A stretch of DNA of 56,091 bases, filler included, from Dirinaria sp. TL-2023a (taxonomy: Eukaryota), in the NCBI GenBank assembly GCA_051941275.1. It is 4 parts of 4 records of this genome, joined end to end, with 100 filler letters (N's around TTAATTAATTAA, not from the genome) between each part and the next. Parts side by side here need not be neighbours in the genome. Positions count along the whole stretch, not along the records: positions 1 to 13,961 come from JAVEBF010000635.1; 3 more parts are not named here. The stretch is one strand, 5' to 3'. The translations under genes were made by a program, and so were the position numbers. The notes under the pieces are model-generated. The model saw only the letters and a program-made list of their open reading frames with translations. It had not been told where the DNA came from and ran no database searches. This document shows, in pieces, positions 1-28,106 of this stretch (positions are counted from its first letter, which is position 1; each line of letters opens with the position of its first letter).

Positions 1-3000
1 ATTTTTGAGGGGGCCGTTCAGCCGGATTATGTAGTCGATGGTAGGCAGTAGTGCTGTCACAGCCGAGAAGGCTTCGCTCAGAAGGTGCAGTAGATGAGGC
101 TGGTTCAGAAGACTTGTATCGTCGAGTAGGGACTGGGAAGCTGCGCGCAGACTCTGCATAAATGCGTCGATCATGGCGGTCACTGATTTGATACTTGCTG
201 CGTTCGTGCCGTCGAGATAGTTGAGCAGATCGTGAAAGACTGGTCGCAAAGCTCGCAGATACGGGGAGAGAAGGATCCATCCGGCGGTCGAAGGGAGGCA
301 CGATTCTAAATAGGCTGGGATGATGGCTCTGATGAGGAAAGCGCGCAGTGTTGGCCTTTGGTCGTGCCCTAGCTCGAAGCCTCCTGACATTGCGGCGTAG
401 AGTTGACCGACGAGATATTGTTGTTGGTCTTCGGTGGCAGCACGCTCGGATACAGATTGGAGGAAGACCGCAAGCTGTTTCGGTGTTCGAGGGTCTTGCA
501 GCCTAAGACCGTAGTTCTTGAGTTGCCCTACCACATACAGAGGGTCTGTGACAGGCAGAGGGAACGCGTTGGAGTCAGTGAAGAATCTATCGATGGGGCA
601 GATGGCCGAAGTGTGCTGCTGGAGGAACTCTACCACCCGTTGCGCAAAGTCCACGTACGCACCCTGAACGTTCGACGCCGGCCCGAGTTCTTGATAGTTG
701 TGCTTCATTGCGTTCATGAGATGCTTCACTAGACCTTTGCATTCTTGTTTCAGCTCCGGCCCCGAAACGCCGTTGTCGATTGATTCTCGCATATTGGATA
801 GGACGGACGATACCAGTGAGAGGCGCCGCAGCGAAAAGTCTGATGGCGTGATATTGTACAGCCCTGTAGTTTTATCTGCCCAAAAAGGCAGGTTTCGCAA
901 TAGCGGATTGGCGCTGTCAATATTTAGCATGGCGCTGGTGACCCGATTCTGGAATTTCAACAAAGACTCTCGCTCGACCAAAGATTCGATCCATGATCGT
1001 AAAAAGTACTCGCGGTGCTCGGCGTAGGCTTCTCTGTCACTTTCAAGAAGGCGAGCAAGAAAGTATGCCGTGAACTTTCGAGTTTGCTGGGTCGACCTTA
1101 GCGAGTTCCAAGAGTCCTGACCAAATGGACCGAGGTAATCGTTCCAACTCTTAAGCCCGGAGCGGACAAATGTTGAAGCGACAGCAACCCAGGTATCGAT
1201 AATCTTGGCTAGTAAGTCGTCCTGTGGAGCTGTGTCGGCACCAAAGGCATTAGAGAGCAAGTACCTAAGAGGTTCCTCTGCAATTCCTTGGAGATGGGCT
1301 ATAGCGCCTCTTTCTTGAGATGTTTTGGAACCACTCCCATCTTCTTCAGCGAACGACCAATCTCCGTAATCTTGGCTATCATCGTTGGGGTCTTTCTGTT
1401 GGGAAAGCCTTGCATATCTCGCGAATTGTAAGGCATAGTTCAGGAGGACCTCCAAAGTTTGCTTTACTACTGTGTTCGTTTGAGGTCGGGTCGCGCTGAA
1501 GAGCTCGAATGTTGGCATTATGGCTGATGTAAGCAGTACACGCATGGCTTCATAGTCTGTGCTGGCTGATAGAGCGAGCTTGAGAGACACCAAAGCATCG
1601 CCTATTACAGCCTCCACCTGCCGCTGGTTACGGGAAATAGTGGACTCCAGCAACTCCGCATTGATGGTCAAGCCAGTGTTGTGCTCTGAGAGTCGCACTT
1701 GCTGCTCAGCTTCAGAACGAGCCAGTGCATGCTGACGCAAAAGCTGCACCATCAGGTCGTTGTGCCACTCTGCAAAAGGGGCCAAACTTGTTAGTTGCTC
1801 TTGGGTAGAGAGTTGATACTGAACAAGGTTGGACCAAGTACGGATGTTAAGGTGACAAGCTTCCCGATGTGAGTTTTCCACGTTGACAAGATTGCGTATC
1901 ACGGTGAGGCGAGGGCGGAACTCCCGAGGAGACGCCCAGTACAAAGTACTGAGCAGATCATGGTGGTTTCTCAGCGCATCTAGGTCTTCTTGAAGGATAG
2001 CTTCTTCTTTTGGATGGGACCGTCCATGATTAGGCATTAGCCGCCAAACGATGTCGCGAATCCTCTTCGCTGGGTACACACTTCGCATTCTCATTAGCCC
2101 TTTTGCGAGTATTTTCAGGAAGACATGAAATGATTTGTCTCCAAGGACGAGATCCAGGGAGGGGTTCTTTGCTAAGTCATTCAAGAAAGGTGGAGAGCCG
2201 TGGCAAGATTCATTCTTGAGATGAGATAGGTTATTCCCGGCAAAGAAATCGAACAATGTCCCAATAACGCCTTCACATTTGGCCCAATTCCAGTCGCTGA
2301 TCAGGTGAAGGCAACGCCCAAACAACGCACGGCAGTAGGAGTTGAGAGAAGGATGCCGATGGAAGGAAGCACGGGAATATACTTCAAGAACTCGACTTAT
2401 CATTTGCTTAACCGGGACCCAGTTGTCACATTGCGTTTTGAAGCGAAGTCCCGTCTCAATGACGCCTTTGGAGTTGAATTCAAGGAAAGGCAGCAAGATG
2501 AATAGAGCCTGCCAGCGCTTTTCCAAGTAATGGACATCATTGCATTCGCCAGCTCCAGTAAAATAGATTTCATTGACGATTTCCCAAAATGGTTGGAGGG
2601 ACTTTTGGCTATTGCCGAGCAGGTGGTAGCAAATCACCAGAGCCTGAATCGGTACATGTTCATTGCGGATGCTATACGCGGAGCCTTGAACGGGTCGGAG
2701 AGCATCAGAACATTGAAAGAATGCAGATAATCGATCCCGTAATACCAGTGCAAGCACGTATCGCGCCGTTTTGGTCTTCAGCGCGGATATTTCGAGTAGC
2801 GTTCTATGAGGTACCAGTTCATGTTCAGCGATTCGGCTTAGCTGGTAGGTCAAAACTAAATTGAGAATGCCGATTTGTATTTTCATGTCGACGCTTTCAT
2901 TCTTGTGCGCTGAGGATTCATTAGCGGCAGCCGCATCTAGATCATTCAATTCTTCGAGGACAAGTGTAAGAAGACTGGTGCATCGTTCGGTGCAACTGAT

Positions 3001-6000
3001 TCTGTCTACCGGGTCAATGAAGCTGAGGTGGTTGGTGAAATAATCACTAAGGCGCTTTTGCAGTCCGAGCACGCTCTCCGATGCAACTGTGATAGCGGAT
3101 TCCGAGCTAAAAAGTACCTTGATGCTCTTCGCGACAGCACCAAGGACGATCTCGAGCTCGGTGGAAACTTCTTCATTCCATTGACCCCATTTAAATATCC
3201 TGGACAATGACACGAATTCCAAGAATCCTTTTGATCTGTCCATATCTTCGGCACAAAAGGGTTGAATGCTGCAGTTGAAATCTCCGCTACCGATGAACGT
3301 ATTATGGTCGAAATAGGTGTCCTTTGGAAATGGCTTAACGTCGAATGTTACTGGATACTGGTAACTAAAGCGTTCAAACCCCATTAGGCTACCCTGCGGC
3401 CCAAGGGAGGCTTCGTCCAGTTCAGCACCAACATTATCGGAATTTTCTGGTATAAGGGCCCCGCTGGGTTGCCGATAGGTGGGTGAATTGATATCCAAGT
3501 GTTTTGGAGGTCGCTTTCGAATTTTACGCGATCTTGTATGCGCGTTGGCCTCGGTAGCACCTCTACTGGGAGGATTGCCCCTAAGATGAGCGTCCGTTTG
3601 TCTCGCAAAGGAGTGAGATTGATCGCCATCTGTAGGCGAAGGGGCATAGTCTGGTTCTTGATATACGTCACTTAAGCGGTTGATTCGGAGCAGACCGCGG
3701 CGGAACACTACATCAGGGCGGTCCTCATCTAATTCGCCTGACGTAGTCTCTAACATGGCCTGTCTTGGTTCATGATCCCTCTTTAGAGCTGAAGAGATTT
3801 TGCTTCTCTTAGAGGGTACATCAAGCTTGCCAAGAGGGTTCGCAAACCGAAATTTACGGACTTTGCGATTTTCAGTCGTCGGCCTGAGGCGCTTCAATGC
3901 TTGATCGAGAGTACTTTGGTTGTTGCGTTTCTTTGTCTGAGAGATGGTGGACGGACCATTGCCTGTTTGACCTTTCCGCCTCGATGGCTGCTCTTTGCCA
4001 GGCTGATTCTCAAGTAGCAAAGTCTCATTGCCAGATCGCGGCACCAAAGGTTTCCTTTGCCAGTGCCGATCAGTGCCCTTGAATGGTGCGATGGACCCTT
4101 CTCGCCATTCCCGTAGACATCTGTTGGCATCAATAGTGTCTGAGTTGGTTGCTAGTCTCAAGGTTTTGCCAGTTGGGCTATGTCTTCCTTGGTCGGCTCG
4201 CATACTTGCAGTACGAGAAGCAACTTTCAAGAACTGAGGCAATATGGGAGCACCTGGTGCATCAAGCTTAACTGCATCTAATATGCTTAGTTTGGGAGGA
4301 CGGAACTTCGGGGTTTTCTTGATAGCTTTATCGAACCGATCAGTGATCCTTGGCTGATGATAATGACTGCTTCTGGAACCATGATGTGCGTGAGGGGCAC
4401 CAGACCGTGGTTTCGCAACTCTGCAATCTTTGGCTGGCTTTTGAGATCTTTTCTTATTTCCTACAGCCCGGTTCTTTGACTGAAGCATGGCATCTATGCG
4501 ATCGTCCTCCTCAGCCTCGCCGTCACGCGCATGGGTATCACGGCCCACCTCTCTCACACCGATATCCTTAGTTAGTCCGCTGAAGTCTAATGCGTGAAGG
4601 CTCTCAGATTCTGTGAGATGTTCCTCCGAGCCACTCGAGTCGTCGGAAAGTATGATAGGGCCCTCGCTGGGATAGCAAGGACTTCTGATTCGCGAACGCG
4701 AAACAACCTTAGCTACGCCGCGATGGCTATTAGCTCTGGTTGGAGACTTATCGCGAATGTTCGCACGCGTCGACTGGCCTTCTTTCAATTGCGATTTGAG
4801 ATCTAGTTTCAACCAAGATGCAGGTAAAACGCCTCGGATTTTCTTTTGAACTCTTTGCAAGTCTTCAGGGGCCTCCTCTTGTGGACTTGGACTACCGAAG
4901 TCGGAATGAGCATCAAAATCTATGGTAACGTCACCGTCATTGCCAGAATCACTAGATATTTCGTTTTGCAAAGCTGCCGTCATTGGACGTCGCCTGGGTT
5001 CTGAAGAAGTCAAGGGAGTAGGCAATCCAGCTGCTACTGGTTTTCCCGGTATTTTGAATCCTTTTCCAGGCGAGGGCGAAACTGGCGATAGTGGCGAGCT
5101 GGCTGACGGTGTTGGCGAAGCAGGTACGTCGAAACTGGGATTATGGTTTCCAACCCTCCCTGACGCTCTGGCATCGTTTTGAAGGCCTGATTCTCGGCCA
5201 TCTATAAGCGTTTTAGTTTTCTTAGAGTAACTATGCACAGTCTTGCGCCGTTTATTTCCAGCACGATCATAGCCTACTGGACGTGAGCGCAAAAGGGCAG
5301 CTAAGTCGGGTAGCTCATCAGCCCCGTCTTCTTCGTTTTGATGAAAGTCAGGAGAAGGTGATCTGAAAGCTTGCGTGAAAGAAGATGACGATGACGATAC
5401 AATATCCGGGGTGCGCGGCCGGTAAAGACTTGCTGCAGCCTGGCTGTCGTCTTGGCTATGCACGTACGGTGCTTGAGACTCTTCTTGAATGTCTGTTACA
5501 TAACCATCTTGGGCCTGAGCTATATGGATTGGCTTAAGGCCTCGAGCTTTCATTGTTTGATTATACTTCTCTTGTTCTAGCACAAAAGGATGCATTTGTA
5601 TCAAATTTCGTCGCCTGAATGACCGACCCTCGCGAGGTACTGTAGGAGACCCAGCGCCCGCCCGTAATTTTGCATCAACATCAAAATTGTCAGTGTTGGA
5701 GTGATTCAGATCATGGGGCAGTGGTAGATCGTGTGCACTCGGTATAGAAAGATTTGGTGGAATTAGAGCTGCAGCGTTCGAAGCAGCGTCTGAAAGAACG
5801 TTTGATGTCGGTGATGCCTGAGGCTCTAGGTGTATGCTCTCAGCAGGACTCGACGATATGCTGGTCAAAGGGGAACTCAGGAGATCTGGCTGTAGTATGG
5901 ACTGAGTTCGTGTTTGATCTTCATTAGGAACCGTATCTAAGACTGAACCCTGGGATGTTGCAGATAAAGGTGCCGCTGGCGGAATTCCGTAGTGATCTTG

Positions 6001-6348
6001 CCCTAGCTCATCTATATCTGTCTCCGGGCTCGATGCTAACTGCACAACCCCAGGCCCTCCTTGGGATTTGGATAATCTTGTAATGCTCTTGCGCAATGGC
6101 GTCCGGCCTTCTTCATCCTCATCGTCGTTTCGTTCTGAGACTCTAGGTCCCTTGGCATGTCGCTCCTCCCATTCAGCGACCTCCAGCACAGACTCATGGC
6201 TGACATCTGGACCTTGCAAGCTACCTGTATTTGGGTTGTTGGTTGGCTGTAAGGTATGAAGGTTGCTGCTTTGAGTACGCCCAAGGCCTTGACTTTCTTC
6301 TTCATCATCAGAGTCTGGGACGTAGCCTCGAGTCCGCCATTCTGCCAT
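1..6348 (-). CDS. MMS22: Mus7/MMS22 family DNA-repair protein, 3' end runs off the window (>=2116 codons)
   Basis: Manual translation from ATG 6348 gives MAEWRTRGYVPDSDDEEE, the typical family N-terminus. Internal motifs RSFRRRNLIQMHPFVLE, DLDALRNHHDLLSTLYWASP and SHREACHLNIRTWSNL. The frame at position 1 matches the start frame, consistent with one long exon. Absent from the ORF track because no stop lies in the window. Confidence 0.88.
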   Translation of the reverse strand, partial: MAEWRTRGYVPDSDDEEESQGLGRTQSSNLHTLQPTNNPNTGSLQGPDVSHESVLEVAEWEERHAKGPRVSERNDDEDEEGRTPLRKSITRLSKSQGGPGVVQLASSPETDIDELGQDHYGIPPAAPLSATSQGSVLDTVPNEDQTRTQSILQPDLLSSPLTSISSSPAESIHLEPQASPTSNVLSDAASNAAALIPPNLSIPSAHDLPLPHDLNHSNTDNFDVDAKLRAGAGSPTVPREGRSFRRRNLIQMHPFVLEQEKYNQTMKARGLKPIHIAQAQDGYVTDIQEESQAPYVHSQDDSQAAASLYRPRTPDIVSSSSSSFTQAFRSPSPDFHQNEEDGADELPDLAALLRSRPVGYDRAGNKRRKTVHSYSKKTKTLIDGRESGLQNDARASGRVGNHNPSFDVPASPTPSASSPLSPVSPSPGKGFKIPGKPVAAGLPTPLTSSEPRRRPMTAALQNEISSDSGNDGDVTIDFDAHSDFGSPSPQEEAPEDLQRVQKKIRGVLPASWLKLDLKSQLKEGQSTRANIRDKSPTRANSHRGVAKVVSRSRIRSPCYPSEGPIILSDDSSGSEEHLTESESLHALDFSGLTKDIGVREVGRDTHARDGEAEEDDRIDAMLQSKNRAVGNKKRSQKPAKDCRVAKPRSGAPHAHHGSRSSHYHQPRITDRFDKAIKKTPKFRPPKLSILDAVKLDAPGAPILPQFLKVASRTASMRADQGRHSPTGKTLRLATNSDTIDANRCLREWREGSIAPFKGTDRHWQRKPLVPRSGNETLLLENQPGKEQPSRRKGQTGNGPSTISQTKKRNNQSTLDQALKRLRPTTENRKVRKFRFANPLGKLDVPSKRSKISSALKRDHEPRQAMLETTSGELDEDRPDVVFRRGLLRINRLSDVYQEPDYAPSPTDGDQSHSFARQTDAHLRGNPPSRGATEANAHTRSRKIRKRPPKHLDINSPTYRQPSGALIPENSDNVGAELDEASLGPQGSLMGFERFSYQYPVTFDVKPFPKDTYFDHNTFIGSGDFNCSIQPFCAEDMDRSKGFLEFVSLSRIFKWGQWNEEVSTELEIVLGAVAKSIKVLFSSESAITVASESVLGLQKRLSDYFTNHLSFIDPVDRISCTERCTSLLTLVLEELNDLDAAAANESSAHKNESVDMKIQIGILNLVLTYQLSRIAEHELVPHRTLLEISALKTKTARYVLALVLRDRLSAFFQCSDALRPVQGSAYSIRNEHVPIQALVICYHLLGNSQKSLQPFWEIVNEIYFTGAGECNDVHYLEKRWQALFILLPFLEFNSKGVIETGLRFKTQCDNWVPVKQMISRVLEVYSRASFHRHPSLNSYCRALFGRCLHLISDWNWAKCEGVIGTLFDFFAGNNLSHLKNESCHGSPPFLNDLAKNPSLDLVLGDKSFHVFLKILAKGLMRMRSVYPAKRIRDIVWRLMPNHGRSHPKEEAILQEDLDALRNHHDLLSTLYWASPREFRPRLTVIRNLVNVENSHREACHLNIRTWSNLVQYQLSTQEQLTSLAPFAEWHNDLMVQLLRQHALARSEAEQQVRLSEHNTGLTINAELLESTISRNQRQVEAVIGDALVSLKLALSASTDYEAMRVLLTSAIMPTFELFSATRPQTNTVVKQTLEVLLNYALQFARYARLSQQKDPNDDSQDYGDWSFAEEDGSGSKTSQERGAIAHLQGIAEEPLRYLLSNAFGADTAPQDDLLAKIIDTWVAVASTFVRSGLKSWNDYLGPFGQDSWNSLRSTQQTRKFTAYFLARLLESDREAYAEHREYFLRSWIESLVERESLLKFQNRVTSAMLNIDSANPLLRNLPFWADKTTGLYNITPSDFSLRRLSLVSSVLSNMRESIDNGVSGPELKQECKGLVKHLMNAMKHNYQELGPASNVQGAYVDFAQRVVEFLQQHTSAICPIDRFFTDSNAFPLPVTDPLYVVGQLKNYGLRLQDPRTPKQLAVFLQSVSERAATEDQQQYLVGQLYAAMSGGFELGHDQRPTLRAFLIRAIIPAYLESCLPSTAGWILLSPYLRALRPVFHDLLNYLDGTNAASIKSVTAMIDAFMQSLRAASQSLLDDTSLLNQPHLLHLLSEAFSAVTALLPTIDYIIRLNGPLKN

Positions 6349-6422
6349 GGGTCGATGCACTGCATACCGAATGGAGCGATCGCATATGACTTTTGAAGTG
6401 GCACTCAGGCTCGGCTAGTGAG

Positions 6423-8313: not shown

Positions 8314-9573
8314 TCAAGACATAGCTAGGCTTTGTTCAAGATCATCCCATCTACCCTTTCTCAAGGGGTCTAAATTCTTTATCCGAAGTAACCAAACCCC
8401 GAGCTGATCTTTCGATATCGGCCACTCCTGACTCAGAGTTCTGTGCAAGATGCTTAGCTCGATCAACGACTTGTAGATCCATTTGCAGTCTTCGTCGAAT
8501 TCCAGCATATCTGTGAGATTTTCGATCTCTCTTAATACATACGCTAGTCTCTGGCCCGTGGTCAGGTTAGGAGCCATGCTCTCAGTAGCGTAAGATGGAT
8601 CGAAAGTGCACATGAGGTACTGGTGATAGAACCATAGGGACTGGTCACTTGGATCAGCAAGCGCGCGTTGGATGAGCTCCAGTTCTGACAGGCAGATTAG
8701 CAAGGTGGTGTAGCTGCTTATTTTCTCTCTCTCTTTGACTTACCGCCGTCCAAGAATCTCAAGCGGGCTGCATCGTCAGCCTTACGTTCGTCCAGCAATC
8801 TTACGATTATCTTGCTCCGGTTGTGCCAGGCCGAAAAATTAGAAAGATTCGACCCAATCATCTTTGTTGTGTACGCAAATTCCTCCTCAATCTGACTACT
8901 CCATTTCATTTCAGATGACAGCCTCTGACTCTCCAAAGCTTCAACTACTACTCTACGGTAGCCCCAACCATGAAAATTCCTGCTGTCGAGGCTGAGCATT
9001 TTGCTTGCGAGTGCCAAATCCCGTTGCCAATACGCTCGAGCATCAGATGCTGGGAGAAGTCGTGTCGCTTCGCCCAGAGCCCATAACCGATAGTTCCATA
9101 TCCAATAGCATTTAGGAAATTTCCGAAGCAGTGGAAGTAGGAAATCAAGGTCATGAGAAATCAGGTCGCCAATAGATTGACCATTACGACTCTTTTCTTC
9201 ACCTGGAGATACATCCCGATCCCTCGCAATTGATTGGGAGAATAAATGCCGCATGATCAGACGCCGGTGGTTCCACATTGTGTAATACTCAGGGTTGATC
9301 TGGAGAAGCCTCGAAATCTGCTGCAAGAGATCGACATCGAATTTTGATCTCTCAATCTACGACCCGTCAACAACGGTACCTGTGCTCCGGATGCACCACT
9401 CACGCCTTGATCAACTTGATCGACAAGGAGTTTGTACTCTTCAATCTTTTGTAATTCTTTTCGACGGGCCTGATCCGATGATGGTTTTGCTCCCGCATAC
9501 CGTGGCACTCCATGCTTTCTTCAACGTGAGCATGCAGATTGATTATCGAGCAACGATTACTTACGCTTGACAT
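8314..9573 (-). CDS. BET4: Rab geranylgeranyltransferase (GGTase II) alpha subunit, 4 exons
   Basis: Exons 9573-9565, 9514-9404, 9356-8744, 8684-8314 give MSSHGVPR..., NPEYYTMWNHRR, FPKCYWIWNYR, DSRNFHGWGYRR, SNFSAWHNR, DPSDQSLWFYHQYL, LDPLRKGRW (prenyltransferase alpha repeats). All introns GT-AG. Confidence 0.93.
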
Positions 9574-9950
9574 GTCTTACCTCCCTGAATCCGAAGACGC
9601 TGCTATTGTGGACAAGTTACAGCCTGGTAGCCAAGCAACAGCTTCAAAGTGGACGGTTTGCGAACCGGCAAGTCGGGCCGCGTAGAGTCTTGGCGCTCTT
9701 TCTGTCCTTGAGATGATGCTGCTCCTTCTTCCAATCCTATCGTCAGGAGTCACATACTCCATTCTCTCTACTCTCCTTCATTTCCTTTTGTTCCTAAGTA
9801 TCTCACTTCCGTGCGCAAGACGCGCTTTGTTTTTGCTTATCAGCTCTTGATTGCATTCCATTACTATCCCAAAAGCAGATTTGTTTTAGTCCTTCGCTTA
9901 GGTTATGTACATCTCGTCTAGTCTCTCATCTCACTCCTTCGGCCGGTGCA

Positions 9951-12820
9951 ATGGAACATACCGTCTCAAAGTCCATAGAGAGTCACTCATCACCCGGCCT
10001 TCCTATTTCTAGACATCGCCAAATTTCAGCGAGCGCCTCAGCTGTATGCTTTGACAAACGGCCAGCTATTAAACGAGAAGCGAGGCGTAACCGGACGGCT
10101 TCGAATCAAGCACTATCCATCGATGCCGGTTTACCGTCCCCACCTACTTCTGACTGCGAAGAGTCCGGAGGTTTAGAAGATGAAAGTATCGCTGCAGTTC
10201 GTAAGGCTTTGAAAGGCTTTCATTGCTCACGTCATACGTCTCTCGCAAGTCACCTGGGGTCTCCCCCTCAATCTGATTCTGATGAAGCATGCGGTCCCTC
10301 CATAAAGAAGGAAAATAGCTTGCATGTAGATAGGAGACGACCTCGACGGCCTCTAAAGTCCACTTTTCAAGACGGCCCATCCGATGCCAAGCGGCCTGCG
10401 CCGCCCATAGGCTCGACAGATGATGAAAGTGACTCGCCGCCCGAAGTCACTCCTTTTCCTCTTCAGCCTTCACCAATTACAACAAGAGATGATCTTGGAC
10501 TTTCGAGGCCCGAAAAGAAGAGGATCAAGCGCAGATGCATCTCCACCGGCACACATTATCATCGTCCCACCAGCACTCCTGACAGGTTCATAGCGCATCG
10601 GGCCGCGTCACAAGATGCTTCGCATAGCTTCCATGTCACTAAAAAAGCAAATGAGCTCTCGCAGAGCGAAAGACTATTCCGTCACAATCTAACAGCTCCC
10701 GACCCTTTTGGCTCACCCATGCCTGCAAATAATGGGAGAAGACGTATAGCAAGCAGCCCGATTAGAAATGCAAGTCGATTCTCTTCACGCGCTATAAGCG
10801 GCACAAATTTGCTCAGTCTTGCAAGTAATGCTTTAAGTACGCAGACGCGACAAATCAGTACTGGAGCCGTGTGGAATGTAGGGGGCTCATCGACAACCGT
10901 GCCTTCAACGCCAATCAGTGGTATCGATAGCGGTCGCGGCGGGATGATTGGTAGTGGTACGAATGCGCCAATGTATACGTCTCGCTTCTTCGAGAAAGAG
11001 AGCCCTGATCAAGATAGAGGCAGGCTGGAAAGCAGACTCGCTGCTGCGCTTGAGATAGACCAGGCCTCCAGAGTGCTCAGCCACTCCCAGTCACCAGCAA
11101 GAAGCAAAGCAGCTACAGATGCCGCTGGGCTTAGTTCTAGATCTTCAGACTCGCAGCAAAGGACTGTTTGGAGAGATGGACAGTGGGTCCTCCCGGTTTC
11201 CTCATCACGTAAGCATCAAGGACAATTCTCTATACTGTACTGTTTTATAGCTATTCATAGCCCTTTTATAATCTCTGCGAAAGCCTAAGTTATAGTGCCA
11301 CACGATGCTAATGTCATCCAGCGAGCCGTAGGCCTCCGGCAGAAGAGGTCAGGGCTGTCCCTGCTACACCGTTCAGATAAGTCCAGCAAGTTCCCCAACT
11401 TGATGCTTTCTGAGTTTATGGCACAGTTCTAGATGCTCCGCAATTACGCGATGATTACTATTGCTCTGTTTTGGCGTACAGTGAGACTTCGCGAACTCTT
11501 GCGGTAGGCCTTGGCAACAGAGTCTATCTCTGGTCTGAAGGCTCAGGTGTGCAGTATCCACTACTATGCGAAGTGGACCGGCGCAATACGTACGTGACTT
11601 CCTTATCATTTTCATCTACGGCAGGCGGCCACAGCATACTTGCAATAGGACGCAACGATGGAAATCTCGCGTTATTGAGTCTGCATGAGCAAGGCATCAA
11701 ATATGAGACTGTGGTGCCGAATGCCGTCGCCTGCCTTGCGTTCAAGCCGGTGACCACTCGGCGGTCGTCCCTACGTTTTGGTATGCCGGTTGAGACCGAA
11801 GAGCTCCTGCTAGGAGACGAGCTTGGCTACGTATATTACTACTCTATTGAATGGATGACAGATCATCAAGTGGCTGTGCATGGATGGACGGGGGCAACCA
11901 CGCTGGTAGCAAAGATCAACGTCCACAGTCAACAGATTTGTGGTCTGGCATGGTCACCAGATGGGGAGTACTTTGCGACCGGAGCTAATGACAACGCATG
12001 CTGTCTGTTCAGAGTCAAAGATATCTTCAAAGACGCGGGTCCTGGGTGTGGGCCGGCATCACCTCCAAACAAAGCACTACAGACAGTGATGGCGAACCTT
12101 GGTCTTGTTAACGAGATACATCCTCAGTCGCCAAATCATCAAATTGGATTCAAAGGCTCAAAGTCCTCGTCAGTTAAAGAAGATTCGCACCCATCTGGAG
12201 GACAATCCGCATTCACGGCAACCCAGGGCAATGTGCTCGAGATTCTCGACGGATGTCAAAAGCACAAATGGTTACACAGTGCTGCCATCAAGGCCATTGC
12301 GTTCTGCCCTTGGCAGCGCGGCTTGATAGCCACCGGCGGAGGCTCCAATGATCGAGCGATCCACTTCTACCACACATTCTCGGGAGCATGTCTGGCAACA
12401 ATCGATGTCCAAGCGCAAGTCACGTCTTTGATATGGTCAACCAGCCGGCGAGAAATCGCAGCTACGTTCGGCTACGCGCAACCAGATCACCCTTATCGGA
12501 TTGCTGTCTTTTCGTGGCCCGAGTGCCGCCAGGTCGTCGCCATTCCTTGGGCCAATGAAATGCGCGCTTTGCTGGCTATCGCTTATCCCGGGGGGCCGAA
12601 TGAGACTAGTCGGCAAGCAGGAGAAGGCGAGGCGTGGTGGTCGCGCACTGCGGAAGAGGGATGCATCGTTGTGGCGTCATCGGATGAATCGGTCAAGTTC
12701 CACGAGGTCTGGATTGGGGCTAAGAAATCGACGGGAGGAAGACTGGGGCTGCTCGGCGGTAGTGATATTCTTGAGGGCTTGGAGGGTATTGATAAGGAGG
12801 GCACTGAGATTATTCGCTAA
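9951..12820 (+). CDS. AMA1: Cdc20/Fizzy-family WD40 APC/C activator, Ama1-like (meiosis-type), 3 exons
   Basis: Exons 9951-11208, 11322-11376, 11425-12820. C-box-like DRFIAHR, PFRVLDAPQLRDDYYCSVLAYS, HSQQICGLAWSPDG, HSAAIKAIAFCPWQRGLIATGGGSNDR, QVTSLIWS and a C-terminal IR tail (EIIR*). The long S/P-rich N-terminus suggests the Ama1-like subfamily rather than Cdc20/Cdh1. Confidence 0.85.
11377..11424 (+). other. Putative non-canonical AT-AC intron (48 nt, U2-like) in the Ama1-like gene
   Basis: ATAAGTCC...TTTCTGAGTTTATGGCAC. Removal joins TTC AG|A GTT CTA GAT GCT CCG = FRVLDAP in frame. I found no GT-AG pair in this interval that restores both frame and motif. Confidence 0.75.
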
Positions 12821-13961
12821 GTATATATTACCTTACTTTGATGCTCTTCACGAAAGATGCTACCGGTACCTCTAATGCACTGCTCCGCTGCCAGGTGTGA
12901 AGTTCTGAGGTCTGCCAGACTATCTCTATCGTTGGAGTCTTGGCTTATTGACGATAGCCGGGACTTAATCATCGTCAACCTTTTGTACTCTATACATCAT
13001 CCCTACCAAGCTACGTGCCCAAATCACGACGCACATTCACAGACCTTCCTTCTACTTTAACATATTGGGAATTTCTCGAACCTCCGACTTCGATTAGCTT
13101 TCTGTCGCCCCCCAAAATCGACTCCTCATATGATCTCCATTCCATTTCTTCACTTTGACACCCGATCTTGCTTCGAGATGGGCGAACCTCCTAGTCATTT
13201 ACATGCATGCGGAAATTTTGCCGGATTGGAGATCATTTTGAGCGGCGTTTCTTCTTTGTTATATGAAAATGGAAGTAGGTGACCATGTCCTATTTTGCCT
13301 CTACATGGCTTAGGGATCCTTTCTTTTCTGACAGAAAACTGAGTCTTAGGCTAGACTGGGTTTGAGACTCATTTGAAGGGGAAAGAAAAAGGAAAAAAGG
13401 AGTGGGAACGCGGAGCTGTATCTTAAGTGGTGTTTTGGTTTCGTATCTTCTGATTGAGGTTCAATTCATGTCTGGGGCTCGCGCTCTAGGCTACTTATAA
13501 TATCTCTACAGTATCCCAGTCTTCTATATATCATCATCGAACCCAATATCTCTTTATTCATGTACTTTTTGATTTTAGATTGGATTTTATCGGGCTTGAA
13601 TTAGTCTATTGTAATCAGAGGACGCGAAAAAATAATTAATTGGCTTCGCTGCTCTTAGTATATGTAGATCTTATCTTGATGCTGATGGGTTTTGTGGTCT
13701 GGATACCTTTGCCTAATATCGTATATATACTTATGTCACTATGCGAGCTTGATGTAGTCCATGCTGAGCTGCTCTACCAGCTGACGCTGTTCTTCTCTGA
13801 CTCTGTTGGTCAACGTTTAAATCTATCCTTATCTATCCCTGTACCCCATTACCTCGCAAAACCCCTTGATTTCACTAATCCCACCATAGAAGCACCATTT
13901 CCAGTTCGATATATCCCGTGCAAGCGGCCACGGACCAGGGACAAAAGATGGGTTTTGCGGT

Positions 13962-14335: not shown

Positions 14336-15663
14336 TTACAGTCTCCCGCCACGGGCCCTGAATCTCTCGCCCGTGCTGGGAATCGGTTTCTCCAGCCTCA
14401 AAGCCCAGAGGAGGAGATCCTCGAGGGGCAGGAGGGCGAGGAAGATGGAATTGCAGAGGTATGCGAACAAGGCGACGACGGTGGCCATGAGGGCATCCAT
14501 CCAATAGTGGTTCGCGGTCGCGACGATGGTCACGAGGATCATGCCCGGGTAGCCCAGGCCGACGCAGATGTAGAAGAGCTTCCAGGGCCAGGATTTGCGG
14601 ACCTCGCCCTTTTCGAGCGTGCGCCGGAAGATGCCGGCGTGGTAGATCATGGTGCAGCCGATGACGAAGGCGTACCCGAAATGCATCGATGGCATCGCGG
14701 CCAGGGAATTGACGTAGTCGCCGGACATGAAGATCGAGGTGGCGTTGTCGTGCCGCACCGAGTCCAGGAAGCCGTATTCGGGCGGGAGCAGGCGCGGCGG
14801 CATGCACGGGTAGAGAGTGAAGGTTAGGAATGCGAAGAGGTTTGTGAGGGTGAGGGTCCGGCGGATCGTGGCGAAGGTAGGATGGGAGGGCGCGATGTAG
14901 TAGTACCACGCTATGAAGCCCACGGTTCCTGGAATATGGATAAGAGCATAGGCACGGTTGAGGATGGTCAACGCAGTTTGATGATCGCTCATGAACCACA
15001 TCTGCACGTCGTGTTCTCGCCACGGGAACAAAAGTTTGAGGGGCCCGTATTGCTCGAATTCGAGGACTTGCAGACCATGGTCTTCGGCCACTTGCCATAT
15101 CTCTTCAGAAAATATCTTTTGAGAGATGACTTTCGTCATGCGGTAGAAGAGGTAGGTGATGATCCAATAGAACATCTCGATTAAGAATGGGAACTTTTGC
15201 AGGATGCGGCTGTGAAAGTGGTTGGCGAATCGTGAGGTGTTGGGGGTATACAGAGCGAGGCCACAGAATCTCCGTCGCTTGGGAAGTTGTTTTGAGGATG
15301 CTGTTGGTTCTTGTGCGTCGTCATTATTGTCCGGGTCATACCACAATAGGTCTTCGGCCGAGCTCGCCGGATCATCGTCGTCGAGTAGGGAATCATAGTG
15401 GCCTTTTCGCTTGCCAAAGATTGGGTAATTTTTCCGCCTTGTCATCACCATAGCCCACACGAGGATGCTGAGAACAATCTTCGCTCATTAGCATAAAAAT
15501 TGACCCAGGGCATTGGTTGTCATACTAAAGGCTCTCCCCATGGCGGCAGCTGGTACATGGGCTTGCTATTCCATTCCGGCGGCGTCTCGCTGATTGTAAG
15601 ATTTGGATTCGCCGCCGTCACATTCGTAACGTCTAGGCGCCGCACAAGTTGATCGAAGGCCAT
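14336..15663 (-). CDS. PAP2_3-family integral membrane protein (inositolphosphotransferase/AUR1-IPT1-like), 2 exons
   Basis: Exons 15663-15526 and 15478-14336 (47-nt GTATGA...GCTAAT...AAG intron). Several hydrophobic helices and the motifs YPCMPPRLLP, NSLAAMPSMHFGY and ATANHYWMDA. Confidence 0.85.
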
Positions 15664-17100: not shown

Positions 17101-20100
17101 TCAGCCTGAGAACCGAAACCTGGTGGCTTCTAATCTTCCGAGCCCGTCTCTCGGCGCAACATTCCTTCGACGGTATGAATTGGAAAAATCTGGAAGCTGG
17201 TTAGCGTCTTCCTCTTGGCGCTAAAGGACAATGCTCGCAAGCTACACAAACCTTGCAGCACCACTCTCACTTTTCGCATTTCTCCTGATTGAATATGCTG
17301 CCCAATGCTACTCATCAATCTGTCTGCCTCGCCTGCCTTGACTGTACCTGCGGGTAGCAAGCCTATAGTACCCTTGACCCACACTGCGGTCTCTTGCGGC
17401 ATGGTCTCGAAAAGAGCAAGTAACACCCCTGAAGCATCTGCAAAACAATCTCGAGGAAAATGGAACATCATGCCGGTCAGTACTCGTTGTACAAGACCCT
17501 CTCCTTGTGAGCTCACTAATCGTTTCACGGCTTGCTGGATCTCTGGAGGGTTTCGTGGCTGGGAGCCGCGCTCACGAGCATCGAAGGACGACGAATTGGG
17601 GTTATCGGTCCCATAGCTGAGGAAGTCGCGGAGGAAATGTAAGGTAGCTGTGAGAGGGGCATATTGCTGTAAGGTTAGGGTACTGATGGCGGCCGAGATG
17701 ATTGGTTCGCATATGGATGCTGCGAGCAGTTGCTGGTGGTAGTAAATTAGGGCATCAACTAGTAGTCGGAAGAAGTCTTCGATTACTGTACAGCTCATTA
17801 GTTGCTGGGGATTAGCGTTCGTAGAACCCAACGTACCATCGGGTAAATCGCTAGCTGGTAGATTGTTCATGATGCGGAGGAATGCAATGGCTTGGGTCTC
17901 GAAGAAGCTGTAAATGGCTTGTGAAGTGGCTGGATCCACGTATTCAGCGCCGACTGCAAACTCTCGGAGGACTGAATCTGTGGCCCAGAGAAAACAACCT
18001 TGTTTTGTGGTCTGAAAGCCGGTAGCTAGCTGCCGCGCAAGGGTCGATAGCAGAGGTAGGATTGCTGTCCGATATGACAACACCATGTTCCGCCAGCACC
18101 GGCACACAGTCTCAAGGATGGCTACCGAGTCGGTGAAGTTTTCTGCAAGGGCCGACATGATCGGAAGGATTTCCTGGCAGTACTTCACTGCTGGATTTTC
18201 CTCCCCAGGTGATACATAAGGCTGGATGTTCTGTACAAATGTTGTCACCAAACCCAGTGTGTCTAAAGATTGAGCATTAGCCATTTTCCAAAGAATTAAG
18301 ACAGAAAGAGCCATGTACCTGCAACTGCTAGGCGGCTCTTATTATCGCGGTCCTGCTGGGTTTTTGCTTCACTCGCAAGGGCCATAACTCTCTTGATGAT
18401 ATGATCGCAGAAAAGCTTGAATAATGGATATATTTTATTAAGGGGCTGCACGGAGATAACGCATGCTACGCCCTCGGTGACTTCCTCTTGGCTAGCCGTC
18501 GGGAGTTTGTCGATGACGGATACGTAGAAGCCGTGAAGTTGTTCGACGTGGTCTTGCAGAAGTTTCTTACAATCGGCTCCAAAAAATCTGAACGCAAGCG
18601 CGGCCGCCCTCACAACTTCCTTGGAGCTATGGTTGAATCCAGCAATAACAAAATTCAACTGGGGTTGCAGGAATTCTGGATGTTGAGCAGTCCAATCCGT
18701 ATACCGTCCGACAGCCATAATCGCTTGAAATCGAAGTTTCTCATGGTTGGGTATTTGTACGATAAGCGGTATCACTTGTCGGAGAACGACGTCTTCCTCT
18801 GGAGATACGTTTCGCCCCATGGCTCGCAAGCTAAATAAGGGCGCTTCCAGTTCTTGCCAATGAGGTACCTTGTCGTCAGTGGCCTGCGGACCCCATTGCG
18901 AAACCCACTGTCTTATCAGGTTGAAGACCTTCCCCAAGCACTCCGTAACTGTAATCATATCGCAGCAGTCTTTTAAAACATCGCCCATCTGATGCCGGAA
19001 TTCACGAAACTTCTCTTCCTGCTCCCGATCTCCATCGAATAGGTCGTTTTCATCTGGTCCTTCCGGAGTAGGAAACTCGAGATGCTTGACCATAACATCG
19101 ACAAGCTTTGCAATTACATCTGCGTAAACGTTTCGCGCTTCTTTATACTTGTCAAGGGTAACCATCTGTTTGAATTCGTACCAGAACAAGAATGTCAGTC
19201 CCACGGCTTCTCGATCTCGGTCACGTCCGCAACATTCCAATATTGCTTCGACAAGGCCACGAAACTCATTAGGCAGCCGTGCAATCATGACCGTCCATGC
19301 TTCACCGGCTTCAGCGAAAATCCTTGTGAGCCCTTTAAATTGATCAGAATCCCCCGTTTCCGCAGCTTCGGCAAGTTTCGGTCGTAAAGCCAAAATTCTC
19401 GGGTATATTAGCTGGATGATTTCGATAGACTCATCAACCTCCCTGGTATCTTTGAAAATCGTACACATGCAGTCAACTGCTGCGTCAAAAGATGAATCGT
19501 TTGAAAGGGCGTTGACAATGGTGTCGAAGAGTGGTGAATTAACCACATCAGCTGCTGGAATTTCTCGGAGCCATGAAGAGACACATTCGAGTAGCTGGGG
19601 GTTCGAGGCTGCGCTGGCTGCTTTACGCTCAGTCTGTGCCATGCCAAGGTTCTTGTAACTTACATGACGACCGAGAATATTGTGTCAGCAGAAGTAATAC
19701 CTGAGCGGAATTGTGCTCTAGCAGCTCGGTCGCTCGATCTGATAATTCATCTTCCTAGAGTTGGAAAGTCTCTTAGCTGACGATCATGATGCCTAAGGAT
19801 TCAGCCTGACGATACGAAGGCCATGCTTGACGTACCGACAAGTTTATTTTTCTTCCCTCAGTAACCTCCTCGGGGAGAACTTTTAGAAACTCAAGTACAC
19901 AATCACCAGCTTGGTTTCCCAGGGTTGACCCCACGACCTGCAGCACATCCTTCCATTCCGTCATTTGTATCGCCAAACTTGCCAGGCAAACGCACAATTG
20001 AGTTCTTATCGGGCGAGGACCATCTCGGAACGCTCCAAGGAGAGCGAGCAACGAATCTCTTAGGCCGTACAATGATGGTCGAGGAAGTTGGTCAAGATCG

Positions 20101-22299: not shown

Positions 22300-23098
22300 T
22301 GCAGGAAGTCTCTTCAAGTATATATTGCTGAGGTTGAATCCGTGGGTAGGCTAATTTATAGTTTTTTTTAAAATCTGATACTGTGGTTACGAGCTCAGAC
22401 CGTAGTCATACATACACTGTAGGAAGGACTGTACCTCGTAATCTGTACGGAGTAAAGTAGGTATCGTCATCCCAAAAAATGTACCTCAAGATAATCCGAG
22501 GTCGCGTAATTGACGTAAGCCTGAGGTCCCGAGGCGGCCCCTCTTACAAGCAAAGGTACGAACTACGAAGTGCCGATTTCCCCGGGGCTAGTGCCACCAA
22601 CATGAACGCGACCCCTCGGACGGTCCGGGGTACCTTAGGTAGATCGAGGCCCCGGGGCTCCTTCGGGTGCGGGTGTAACTCTTACCTAATGTAACCTGGA
22701 ATTCTAGATGCTCGCATGACTTAATCCTCAGCGCAAGCTTCCTCACTTGCCGTTTTGCTTTTCTTCCCTGGATTCTCCAGTGATTCCATCTTCCTGGGCA
22801 GGTGTGCGCATTCCAAGTTCGATGCACTGACGTGGAGGACATTGGCCCGTTATGCGACGTCCTTGCTTGCTTCAAGGACAAGAGAGACCATGTGGAACCA
22901 ACTATACCCAATGTCGACTATCGGCGATATTAGGAGATGTGTATGAACCTTTTGTTACGAGTTAGGGACGACCACAATCAACCAACTGTCCTGTCTCACT
23001 TATTTCCTTCAAGTAATCATCAATGTGAAACCGCGACACCAACGGGTTTCTATTCTCCTTTACCTTTGCCAGCTCGGCATACCCAAGCGTTCGCAAGT

Positions 23099-24160
23099 AT
23101 GCCTGCACCTGAGCATCAAAGCGGTGATCGTGGCTCTGCAACGCCGGACCAGTCAAGAGCGAGTAACTCCTCGCCTGTTCTTCCTCCACCGCCGGAACCT
23201 TCTGCAGATAAAGGGATTGCGCCTCGGGTAGGCACTTCAGCTGATGAAGGCATTGTGGTACCGGATGCAGACCAGCTCGATATCTTCACTTTAGCGCCTG
23301 TAGCTGCGCTGAAGATGCTTTGTGATACGGTCGAAACACTTGTGCAGACGACGGGCGATATACCTCCTACACCTCCGATTAGCGGGCAAGGGCCTCTAGA
23401 TCCTCATATGGTTCAGGCGAGGATCAAAAATGCCGCTAAACATGCTATGGACTCCCTTCGAGATGGTCCACCAACTGACTCCCAAAACGAAGCACCTCAG
23501 CCAGACGCAGTAGAGTCGAATGCTTCACCATCGGAACATCACTCGGACGTGCCTCCCCGAGCCAAAACACCTATAGGCAGCCCAGAAGCGCACCCTACAG
23601 AACCTCTTCAAGTCGTAGGCGCTAACGTGGAACCACTGGATGTCCAGCAAGGTGCCATCACACGAAAGTTCTACTCCAAGAGACCACCGCCAATTTCTCT
23701 TGAAGAATACTTATTTCGTTTGCACAAGTATTGTCCGATGTCTACTGCAGTCTACCTTGCAACATCGCTGTACATTCACCGCTTGGCCGTGGTCGAGAAG
23801 ACCCTACCCGTCACCGCCAAGAATGTTCATAGACTACTGCTAGCTGGATTAAGAGTGGCAATGAAAGCCCTCGAGGATCTTAGCTACCCTCACACACGCT
23901 TCGCCAAAGTTGGTGGAGTCACTGAGCCTGAACTTGGAAGGCTTGAGGTGAGCTTTTGCTTTGTCACAAACTTTGATATGAGGGTCACAGCCGAGATGCT
24001 CTTGAAACATGCAAAGTCTGTCAGAGATGGGCAAAGCTATTTGGAAGGGTTGGACAGCTCTCAGCCACTGCCACCTACGCAGAATATGAGACAGTTGCCT
24101 TTGCGGCAGCCCATGGCCGCTGTCAAGCCAATAGGAGTGGGAGCACATGCTGCAGCGTGA
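23099..24160 (+). CDS. Pho80/Pcl-family cyclin (Pho85 cyclin, Pcl6/7-like)
   Basis: Cyclin box RKFYSKRPPPISLEEYLFRLHKYCPMSTAVYLATSLYIHRL...NVHRLLLAGLRVAMKALED...FAKVGGV...ELGRLE. Start placed at MPAPEH (23099); the in-frame ATG at 22937 is possible. Confidence 0.88.
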   Translation: MPAPEHQSGDRGSATPDQSRASNSSPVLPPPPEPSADKGIAPRVGTSADEGIVVPDADQLDIFTLAPVAALKMLCDTVETLVQTTGDIPPTPPISGQGPLDPHMVQARIKNAAKHAMDSLRDGPPTDSQNEAPQPDAVESNASPSEHHSDVPPRAKTPIGSPEAHPTEPLQVVGANVEPLDVQQGAITRKFYSKRPPPISLEEYLFRLHKYCPMSTAVYLATSLYIHRLAVVEKTLPVTAKNVHRLLLAGLRVAMKALEDLSYPHTRFAKVGGVTEPELGRLEVSFCFVTNFDMRVTAEMLLKHAKSVRDGQSYLEGLDSSQPLPPTQNMRQLPLRQPMAAVKPIGVGAHAAA

Positions 24161-25627: not shown

Positions 25628-28006
25628 ATGTCCAGCTCTGCGCATGGCCGGAATCCTTCTTACAGTGACCGCCGAACCTCAGCAACTTTAGGAACCCGAC
25701 CCCGCGTCCCTTCCTCTCGCATCGATGCCAAAGGACCGCCTGGTTCTTCGGACGACGTCCTCCCACAGGACTCAATCAGTAATGCTGGAAGCAGAAGACC
25801 TACTTCTGCTCTCTATGCGTCAAATGGAACTTCTACACATACTATCACGGAGCGCCAGAGCGAGCGACACCATGTTACTACAAAGGACAACATTCGAGTC
25901 ACAAGGAGAAGTCCTTTGAAGCCTTCGACTAGCGACAAGGAGAACGTTACTGTTCCAAAGAGCCGAGAATCGTTGGTGCCCAGTACAAATGTAGCAGAAG
26001 CGAGGCCGAAGAGGACGTTGCGTAAGCTGATGTACGACAACAGTCCAACGAGAAACTGATCTGGGTCGTCTAGCACCATGGGAACCTCAAGCAACAATTA
26101 TGCCCCACACTTCTGCTGCTCTGGCTTCTCGGGTCTCAATCCCTCCCCAGGCAACAATCCTCCCCGAGTTGATGGAACCTGAACCACTAAAACGACTGTC
26201 ACCAGACGCGCAAGAAGCGGCTCTAATAGAAGATATCTTATTCGTTCTGATGGGCTACGAAGGACAGTACATCAGATTCGACAAGGCCTACGACCCGTCA
26301 GAGGAGAAAAGCCGGCTGGCCGGTCCAGCATACAGAATTTTACCAGGGCTTGATCCGAGTTTGCGGGATCTTACGAATTCAATATTGAAGATGGCAACGT
26401 ACTACGTCGCTGTGGAGGCATTCGTTCAAGTACAAAGCAGGGACGAGTTTGGTTCGACAAATCACGCTCTATGCGCCTCAATCCGAAAGCTACTGAAGGA
26501 TTATCTTGTACTTGTTGCACAGCTGGAACACCAATATTTAAGCAACGAATCTTTCACCCTGCATGTATTTCATCTGCATACTGCTCCGACTATGCAGACC
26601 ATGTTGCAGCTCTATGTACTAGCCCAGGAGTTACTTCGAAAAAGCAATCTTTTGGATGAGGACCTCGATGATGACGTTGATGGATTCGATGATGATTACA
26701 TTTTGGAACAACTCAGGGAAGGAGGCGAGCTTGCGCCTGGGGGCATGTCCAAAAGATTTTGTAAAGGTGGGAATGTTCTTCGTTTCCTCACTGAGAGGCT
26801 TTCATGCATGGCTGGGGACCCGACCGCCAGGAGTCTACTTCAGGGCTTGCTTCGAGACGCAAGTCGGCCGTACATGACGATGTTGAACGAATGGCTTCAC
26901 CATGGTGGAATCAAGGACCCGCATGCCGAGTTTCTAATCAAAGAACAGAAGAGCATCAAACGGGAAAAGCTAGAAGACGACTATACGGACGAGTACTGGG
27001 AGAAGAGGTACACGATCCGGGACACGGAGGTGCCCCCACAGCTCGAAGGCGTGAAAGACAAAGTGCTCTTGGCTGGGAAGTATTTGAACGTGGTCAGAGA
27101 ATGTGGCGGTGTAGATATCAGTAAAGGGGTAAAAGACGTTCCCAAATCATTCGACGATCCACACTTCCTCGATAATATCAATGGGGCATACGCCCATGCA
27201 AATTCGTCGTTACTAGATCTGCTAGTCACCACCCATGCCCTGCCCGCTCGTCTGCGGTCAATCAAGCATTACTTCTTCCTCGACCGATCCGACTTCTTCA
27301 CTTACTTCCTCGATCTTAGTACTTCGGAGCTCAAGAAACCGGCGAAGTCGGTCAACGTAGGTAAACTACAATCATTACTCGATCTAGTACTTCGGCAACC
27401 GGGGACCATTGCGGCCCAGGATCCCTTTAAAGAAGACATCAAAGTCCAGATGAACGACGTAGGCCTAACCAAGTTCTTAATGGGCGTAGTCAACGTCCGG
27501 GGGATCGACCAAGACGCGCCTGACGAAAGCATGGACCATTACCAAACCCCGGCCCCCCCGCAGCAATCGACTGAAGAAGACAGCAAGATGACGGGGTTCG
27601 AAGCGCTCGAATTCAAATTCCTGGTTCCGTTCCCCCTCTCTCTCGTAATCAGCATCAAGACCGTACTGCGGTACCAGATCCTCTTCCGCTACCTGCTCTC
27701 CCTGCGCCATCTCGAAGGCCTGCTGGTCAACAGCTGGGAAGACCACCACAAAGTGCTGAGCTGGACGAACAAGAGCCCGGACCCGAAACTCGAGCGGTGG
27801 AAACGGCGCGCATGGACGCTGCGCGCTCGCATGCTCGTCTTCGTCCAGCATTTCACGTACTACTGCACGGCCGAAGTGATCGAGCCCAACTGGCAGAACC
27901 TGATGGCTCGGGTCACGGAGTGCGAGCAGGCGAGTCTGAACGGCTCGCAGAAGACAAGCCGCACCGTGGACCAATTGATGGAAGACCACGTCGATTTCCT
28001 GGATAC
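25628..28006 (+). CDS. alp4: Gamma-tubulin complex component GCP2 (Spc97/Alp4), truncated by the contig end
   Basis: Exons 25628-26021 and 26074->28006. QEAALIEDILFVLMGYEGQYI, EDDYTDEYWEKRY, KVLLAGKYLNVVRECG, LRSIKHYFFLDRSDF, VPFPLSLVIS, EVIEPNW, HVDFLD. Confidence 0.92.
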
Positions 28007-28106
28007 NNNNNNNNNNNNNNNNNNNNNNNNNNNNNNNNNNNNNNNNNNNNTTAATTAATTAANNNNNNNNNNNNNNNNNNNNNNNNNNNNNNNNNNNNNN
28101 NNNNNN
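28007..28106. other. Artificial contig-joining linker
   Basis: N44-TTAATTAATTAA-N44. Confidence 0.97.

Follow-up and report, generated by a model that had tools for sequence, protein, structure and literature searches.

How is an intron that begins with AT and ends with AC removed in a fungus whose clade is reported to be without the minor spliceosome, and does its unusual form serve to control the gene that carries it? The question is raised by an AMA1/Mfr1-type gene of the lichen-forming ascomycete Dirinaria sp. TL-2023a, which lies at 9951-12820 on the plus strand of the stretch of DNA analysed here (56,091 nucleotides, filler included; hereafter the window). Here, we conclude that positions 11377-11424 of this gene, which encodes an anaphase-promoting complex/cyclosome (APC/C) co-activator, are very probably a genuine spliceosomal AT-AC intron, excised by the major spliceosome (U2-type).

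The gene runs from an ATG at 9951 to a TAA stop at 12818-12820 and has three exons. Exon 1 (9951..11208, 419 codons plus 1 nt) is of low complexity in its N-terminal half and encodes a C-box-like DRFIAHR at 10581-10601. It is followed by a canonical GT-AG intron of 113 nt (11209..11321, GTAAGC...CTAAT...CAG) and by a micro-exon of 55 nt (11322..11376), which codes for (P)SRRPPAEEVRAVPATPF and the first two bases of an Arg codon, ends in ...GTC CCT GCT ACA CCG TTC AG at 11376, and carries a motif, [VIL]P..PF[RK], that is kept in orthologues. The second intron, 48 nt long and in phase 2 (11377..11424), reads ATAAGT...TTTCTGAGTTTATGGCAC: its 5' site, ATAAGT, occupies 11377-11382, a branch-like CTGAG occupies 11410-11414, its A11413 standing 11 nt ahead of the final base of the intron, and its 3' end is GGCAC, with the final CAC at 11422-11424. 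Exon 3 (11425..12820) starts with A GTT CTA GAT GCT CCG and ends with ...ATT ATT CGC TAA; it supplies the last base of the Arg codon, VLDAPQLRDDYY..., the complete WD40 propeller of Cdc20/Fizzy type and, at the C terminus, IR (12812-12817). These three exons and both introns lie on the plus strand. With 11377-11424 removed, the protein reads ...AVPATPFR|VLDAPQLRDDYY..., and the RNA-based coding sequence specifies 902 aa with no internal stop. Retention of the 48 nt keeps the frame but brings TAA at 11378-11380 and TGA at 11411-11413 into it, and the gene's exons are themselves free of in-frame stops. An earlier sequence-only reading of this locus had described the same exon ends and the same 48-nt ATAAGT...CTGAG...GGCAC segment, which match the sequence exactly, and its statement that retention truncates the protein ahead of the propeller is borne out by the in-frame TAA.

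Sequence similarity gives good support for placing the product, among the Cdc20/Fizzy APC/C co-activators, in the Ama1/Mfr1 branch. The protein encoded by exon 3 (P0001) matches Pfam family PF24807 at 209.5 bits against a cut-off of 200 (E 8e-62), and structure chains of Cdc20, Slp1 and Cdh1 match at E values of 2e-37 to 2e-22. Proteins annotated in databases as 'meiosis-specific APC/C activator protein AMA1' or 'meiotic fizzy-related' match far more closely, at E values of ~1e-121 to 1e-181; among them are proteins from Nannizzia gypsea, Podospora and several Pleosporales, as well as many JGI entries. The motifs of APC/C co-activators are a C-box, DR[FY]IP.R, and a C-terminal IR tail; the DRFIAHR of this protein, with Ala replacing Pro, stands at residues 211-217, and the protein ends in ...EIIR. 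Together with the PF24807 match above its cut-off and the AMA1-named closest matches, these motifs uphold the Ama1-like identity that had been proposed for the gene.

Direct evidence on the junction comes from RNA. Part of the gene is present in five public runs, all labelled lichen metagenome, of which four are RNA from one sample and one is DNA; contigs from three RNA runs (X1, X2 and X4) and from the DNA run (X5) were aligned to 9900-12900. The RNA contigs (X1, 3011 nt; X2, 2827 nt; X4, 374 nt) all join 11376 to 11425, skipping 48 nt with the ends AT..AC. The same three contigs join 11208 to 11322, removing 11209-11321 with its GT..AG ends, and RNA contigs cover exon 1, ending at 11208, as well as exon 3. 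Because A11377 and A11425 are the same base, a slip of 1 nt at the 11376/11425 joint is an equivalent reading. No other joint and no unspliced contig is listed for X1, X2 and X4, although contigs drop rare variants. The RNA contigs are 95-99% alike to the window, with an identity of ~96.5%, that of X1 showing ~95 differences over ~2.84 kb, and their source is therefore a close relative rather than the window's own strain. The DNA contig from X5, 92.5% alike to the window, is unspliced across the region and has one extra T after 11394; the length of the intron is free of a multiple-of-three constraint.

No conventional join can take the place of the AT-AC one. We enumerated all GT-AG, GC-AG, GT-AC, GA-AG, AT-AG and AT-AC pairs with a donor in 11340-11401 and an acceptor in 11384-11445, and no GT-AG or GC-AG pair in this range gives an open join in the propeller frame. 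The complete list of open in-frame joins consists of the AT-AC pair 11377-11424, a GT-AC pair (11371-11424) that drops Phe-Arg (FR), and three GA-AG pairs from 11376 that lose or alter conserved residues. Conversion of the first intron base to inosine (A-to-I editing), as a way of creating a GT donor, was also considered and rejected: it would yield GT-AC, and the preceding base is G or A, not the U that such editing prefers. The sequence-only reading had predicted the 11376/11425 junction that is now present in the RNA of a close relative, and had argued, as our enumeration does, that nearby GT donors fail and that a GA-AG join costs a conserved residue. The observation of an AT-AC intron at 11377-11424 is confirmed as real.

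By all of the features that we tested, this intron appears to be of the U2 type. Its donor, ATAAGTCC, is ATAAGT, which is the U2-type donor of fungi (GTRNGT) with A in place of G at position 1, in agreement with the earlier description of the site at 11377-11382 as GTAAGT with its first G changed to A, and not as the U12-type ATATCC. The available text of PMC5029451 ascribes a 'very strong /ATAAGT consensus' to U2-type AT-AC introns and quotes the U12-type 5' site consensus as /ATATCCTT. The window intron has no ATATCC donor, and none of 26 orthologous AT-AC donors (0/26) is ATATCC. The branch consensus of U12-type introns is TCCTTRAY, to which a regular-expression search found no match in the window intron. 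Instead, CTGAG at 11410-11414 occupies the position at which orthologues have CTGAC, CTGAT, CTAAC or CTAAT, and it is a putative branch whose last base, G, is off consensus. As had been noted from the sequence, CTGAG may serve ordinary introns of this genome too: two canonical-looking candidates of the form GTAAGT...CTGAG...YAG, both on the minus strand, with open flanking frames and ending in CAG, lie at 19618-19663 (46 nt, inside the transportin/MTR10-like gene) and at 29605-29655 (51 nt). As far as the available text of PMC2846911 goes, Pezizomycotina are listed there among the groups without U12 splicing, U12 small nuclear RNAs (snRNAs) or U12 introns. Comparison of the 56-kb window with Rfam gave one tRNA and no other match, a result that is uninformative on snRNAs.

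To read the intron site across fungi, we used an alignment of 18 orthologues as the query for a scan of metagenome contigs, which gave 80 loci; in each of them we examined the sequence that precedes the Val codon of VLDAP and marked where the [VIL]P..PF codons fall, four loci being too short upstream. Loci and window together form 50 clusters at 97% protein identity, three of which are too short to read, leaving 47 distinct loci. The phase-2 site holds an AT-AC intron in 26/47 clusters, GT-AG in 8/47, AT-AG in 2/47 and AT-AA in 1/47, and the remaining 10/47 have no intron there. Conservation of AT-AC at this position, a question that the sequence-only reading had raised, is thus found in more than half of the distinct loci, and its attribution of the intron to 'this lineage' proves too narrow, since the AT-AC state is common to several fungal classes.

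Within the AT-AC class both ends of the intron are invariant and the interiors are unconserved, the best common 5-mer occurring in 4/26. All 26 donors fit ATRNGT (ATATGT 12, ATAAGT 5, ATACGT 4, ATGAGT 3, ATAGGT 2), and the last three bases are CAC in 19, TAC in 6 and AAC in 1. The introns are 46-53 nt long, a multiple of three in 8/26, and 25/26 contain a YTRAN motif with its A 11-12 nt from the 3' end. GT-AG orthologues share this build, with lengths of 47-62 nt and the branch motif at 10-11 nt in 6/8. Retention leads to a stop or a frameshift in 24/26 of the AT-AC introns; the other two, in L044 and L076, read through in frame without a stop.

We placed these states on a quick, unrooted maximum-likelihood tree of 62 propeller sequences, comprising 43 locus clusters and 19 named anchors and omitting L071, L072, L077 and L078, which have fewer than 300 residues before a stop. 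AT-AC is found in a Lecanoromycete clade (9 clusters including the window, which are all of that clade's intron-bearing DNA clusters), a Dothideomycete clade (11 clusters, nine of them adjoining Lindgomyces), an Arthoniomycete-like clade adjoining Chrysothrix (2 clusters), and a Leotiomycete clade (2 clusters) whose label rests on the 94% identity of L038 to a Stipitochalara protein. GT-AG is the state of all six Sordariomycete-like clusters in the tree, of L077, which is Hypoxylon-like by BLAST, and of one Leotiomycete-like cluster; Sordariomycete-like loci are GT-AG in 7/7 cases. There is no intron in Capnodiales-like and some other Dothideomycete-like loci, in a sister group of the Lecanoromycete clade or, judging by protein, in Teloschistaceae, and its absence is precise, with PFR or PFK and VLDAP contiguous in the DNA, in L008, L013-L015, L027/L028, L049, L061-L064, L069, L073/L074, L078 and L080. 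The tree calls for two changes of the first intron base, three of the last and at least four in the presence of the intron, gain and loss being indistinguishable without a root.

Protein records carry traces of the same intron. Of the 120 closest matches to exon 3, sequence upstream of VLDAP is present in 45: 23 read T|VLDAP, 17 read PFR|VLDAP, and 5 are gene models that jump, joining exon 1 to [ILV]LDAP. The 23 are bare open reading frame (ORF) calls, whose Thr (ACN) is made of the intron's AC and the adjoining exon base. The ORF call P0075 translates a whole intron in frame as PFR-Y...T-VLDAP, consistent with A-TAY at the start of an intron and AC at its end. A regular-expression census of the micro-exon gave a plausible upstream acceptor and a 48-55-nt exon in 17/37 distinct intron-bearing loci, but it is heuristic and was not used. 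The AT-AC intron is ancient and well conserved, and belongs to a known rare class. A targeted search of full-text literature, supplements aside, found no account of such an intron for AMA1 or for orthologues of it in fungi, although one yeast review deals with AT-AC ends and with AMA1 separately; some public models do give the correct protein, and the junction is thus implicit in a few annotations.

In Leotiomycete-like relatives the ends of the intron take still other forms: AT-AG at L038:1182-1229 and at L040:255-302, and AT-AA in L039 and L041:2453-2499, all just upstream of the match start. Close relatives of these loci are AT-AC (L029, L037) or GT-AG with a poor donor, GTAAAA or GTAAAC (L033/L034). 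The genes of this Leotiomycete-like clade are intact, with a propeller of 427 aa and a C-box wherever the upstream DNA reaches, and the pairwise ratio of nonsynonymous to synonymous substitution (dN/dS) among Leotiomycete-like genes, 0.015-0.034, denotes strong purifying selection at a dS of >1.3, near saturation. In the Stipitochalara protein with 94% identity to L038, the gene model likewise leaves the micro-exon out. A first-base A with a last base other than C thus seems to be tolerated: either these fungi ligate exons across A...G and A...A, or something else is at work.

We propose that the major spliceosome would recognize the 5' site of the window intron as an ordinary fungal GTRNGT with its first G changed to A, and would use it with an ordinary CTRAY-like branch lying 11-12 nt from the 3' end. 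According to the available part of PMC11585973, the first and last bases of an intron interact at exon ligation, and A-C can replace G-G; in the present intron the terminal A and C would pair in this way, standing in for G·G. Splicing links the 55-nt micro-exon to the propeller exon, restoring PFR|VLDAP and the 902-aa protein, and an unspliced transcript would end after the Arg, at the TAA. The AT-AC state is old, and common to several classes of Pezizomycotina. On the simplest view it has persisted because each end can change safely only together with the other, and its persistence needs no special regulatory role; that the intron is used constitutively, as opposed to under regulation, is something that we infer.

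Several points weigh against this proposal. Dependence on U2 is inferred from sequence motifs and from the literature on the clade. The RNA comes from a relative ~3.4% divergent from the window, whose own intron ends are unseen in the contigs, and contigs, being evidence of the junction, cannot reveal the efficiency of splicing, its stage, or rare unspliced forms. A11377 and C11424 themselves rest on the assembly sequence. A phylogenetic test of coupling between A/C and G/G ends has 2 independent contrasts and hence no statistical power. Finally, AT-AG and AT-AA ends occur in genes under purifying selection, and therefore a rule that A must pair with C is not the whole story.

Of the other explanations of the locus, two can be given hardly any credence. 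If the intron were of the U12 type and removed by a minor spliceosome, its AT-AC ends and its short, fixed branch-to-3' distance of 11-12 nt would be expected, as would the range of 3' ends (AC, AG and AA) that relatives tolerate, since U12-type 3' sites show such tolerance. Yet the donor is ATAAGT in the window and ATRNGT in every one of the 26, TCCTTRAY was not found in the window intron, GT-AG orthologues share the same geometry, and the clade is one reported, in what is available of PMC2846911, to be without U12 snRNAs and introns. An artefact or a dead gene, be it through miscalled bases at the two ends of the intron or as a pseudogene without productive splicing, would fit a public model that avoids the site. 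Two such errors, however, would need to hit precisely the first and the last intron base, and 25 further distinct loci, taken from independent assemblies, carry the same A...C; a close relative has a full-length spliced mRNA, both exon 1 and exon 3 are open, and conservation of the propeller is high.

An alternative that has more in its favour, but that we still consider unlikely, is that the intron acts as a regulatory gate, its AT-AC ends making it slow to splice or reliant on some factor of the sexual stage; transcripts of vegetative tissue would then keep the intron and stop at the TAA, full-length Ama1 being made only in ascus development, by a third route beside those of yeast and Fusarium. 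There are precedents for such control in this gene. In yeast, four transcripts depend on Mer1, AMA1 among them (PMC11585973, available part), and the pseudogene FgAMA1 is restored by sexual-stage A-to-I editing of a stop that arose six independent times among Sordariomycete orthologues, in a study whose authors compare this editing with the yeast AMA1 intron (PMC10776026, available part). Persistence of the non-canonical ends across several classes could be read in the same light, as could the stops or frameshifts that follow from retention of 24/26 AT-AC introns and the uniform GT-AG state of Sordariomycete-like loci (7/7), which belong to the class that has the editing system. Five orthologue clusters, moreover, have in-frame TAG at positions where relatives have Trp, with homology continuing in frame: L077 and L078 at codon 149 after the match start (VEWPEA*EV), L031/L032 and L076 at codons 347 and 334, which correspond to the invariant Trp375 of P0001, and L073/L074 at codon 369, at or beside Trp403/404. 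L032, L076 and L073 are placed in the Dothideomycete part of the tree, and from their sequence these clusters look like UAG-to-UGG editing sites outside the Sordariomycetes, or like decaying genes. The parallels with Mer1-dependent splicing and with FgAMA1 editing are real but circumstantial. Against them, the sole RNA sample, whose developmental make-up is unspecified, shows only the spliced form, although contigs cannot show that an unspliced form is absent. The intron is missing from 10/47 distinct loci, with at least four changes in presence, and every listed model from Eurotiomycetes, Sordariomycetes or Teloschistaceae has the motif contiguous; it follows that the intron can be dispensed with. 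The Mer1-type enhancer AYACCCTY was not found in either intron or anywhere in 9800-12900, no internal motif is common to the 26 AT-AC introns (the 4/26 given above is the maximum for any 5-mer), and the introns of L044 and L076 could be translated in frame without a stop. AT-AC pairs are, in addition, unusually well conserved in general (PMC7072748, available part), which is expected from coupled ends alone. Unlikely to much the same degree is a broader version in which AT-AC, rather than being a frozen accident, is a selected slow or factor-dependent splice that silences Ama1 except in ascus development, and AMA1 a gene at the trade-off between reproduction and growth that has been locked post-transcriptionally in at least three ways. 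If it were true, Lecanoromycetes, Dothideomycetes, Arthoniomycetes and some Leotiomycetes would use the AT-AC intron as the lock, Sordariomycetes, whose intron has become GT-AG, would use UAG-to-UGG editing, and budding yeast Mer1-dependent splicing, and the TAG codons of Dothideomycete-like loci would hint at restorative AMA1 editing beyond the Sordariomycetes.

A U2-type AT-AC intron, as we propose, would be a natural and long-lived one in a clade reported to be without the minor spliceosome, and the AT-AC, GT-AG, AT-AG and AT-AA forms found at one site under purifying selection would make a comparative series for the interaction of the first and last intron nucleotides. Whether AMA1 is generally locked post-transcriptionally becomes testable in tractable Dothideomycetes or Leotiomycetes.

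A practical consequence concerns public gene models, in which the AT-AC intron causes widespread misannotation. P0408, an 881-aa protein from a Dirinaria metagenome-assembled genome, is the public model of the window gene: it agrees fully with the window product over the 419 residues of exon 1 and over the final 461 residues. Between these it joins ...PVSSS to H-APQLRDDYY, passing over the micro-exon together with eight bases at the start of exon 3. It is thus without PSRRPPAEEVRAVPATPFRVLD, 22 residues being replaced by His, and the conserved PFRVLD stretch is gone. In a survey of 109 long models, drawn from the best 120 listed, PF[RK]|VLDAP is contiguous in 68/109, other sequence precedes VLDAP in 37/109, and the motif is absent from 4/109. 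The 68 contiguous models include all listed Eurotiomycete, Sordariomycete and Teloschistaceae entries, a few Pleosporales and, perhaps derived from a transcript, a 901-aa Logan protein; the 37 models without PF[RK] include most listed Pleosporales, several of them named AMA1, together with Pseudogymnoascus, Heterodermia, Pseudocyphellaria, Psora and Bacidia. Studies of APC/C activators, of meiosis genes and of orthology in these fungi are making use of wrong proteins.

Elsewhere in the window, Pfam matches identify Mus7/MMS22 (1-6414, minus strand), prenyltransferase alpha repeats (8718-9356, minus), PAP2 (14336-15484, minus), transportin-3/importin-13, the MTR10-like gene (17130-19684, minus), a cyclin (22934-24160, plus), a gamma-tubulin complex component (26031-28058, plus) and a proteasomal AAA ATPase (53843-55588, plus); the Rfam tRNA lies at 53536-53607 on the minus strand. 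Paired runs of 44 N occur at 13962-14005/14018-14061, 28007-28050/28063-28106 and 42051-42094/42107-42150, a spacing of ~14,045 bases whose regularity resembles masking or joins rather than biology.

The AMA1 intron can be set beside several known systems, each of which it resembles in part. With U12-type AT-AC introns it shares the terminal dinucleotides and a short branch-to-3' distance, and it differs from them in having neither their donor nor their branch consensus. S. cerevisiae AMA1/SPO70, as described in the available sources, belongs to the same gene family, needs removal of an intron for its full-length protein and has a weak, non-consensus 5' site; there, however, a Mer1 enhancer (AYACCCUY) is present that the window gene does not have, and the deviation in the window lies in the otherwise invariant first and last bases. 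In FgAMA1 (PSC33), again as far as the available account goes, a premature stop of an orthologous gene is likewise removed at the RNA level, but by UAG->UGG editing and not by splicing, whereas the window exons have no stop, and the Sordariomycete-like site is GT-AG. The metazoan U2-type ('type II') AT-AC introns, a few dozen of the pattern /ATAAGT...AC/, have the same ends, an identical donor and no U12 motifs; in contrast to these, the window intron is fungal and 48 nt long, belongs to a clade reported to be without the minor spliceosome, and stands at one orthologous site across several fungal classes. The ability of a yeast-type major spliceosome to ligate exons across A...C is known from the S. 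cerevisiae actin a1/c303 construct and from an AT-AC isoform of RPL30 (available text of PMC11585973 and PMC5029451). The actin construct is artificial and the RPL30 isoform makes up 1-2% of mRNAs, whereas the AT-AC junction in the window is the sole productive junction of a conserved gene.

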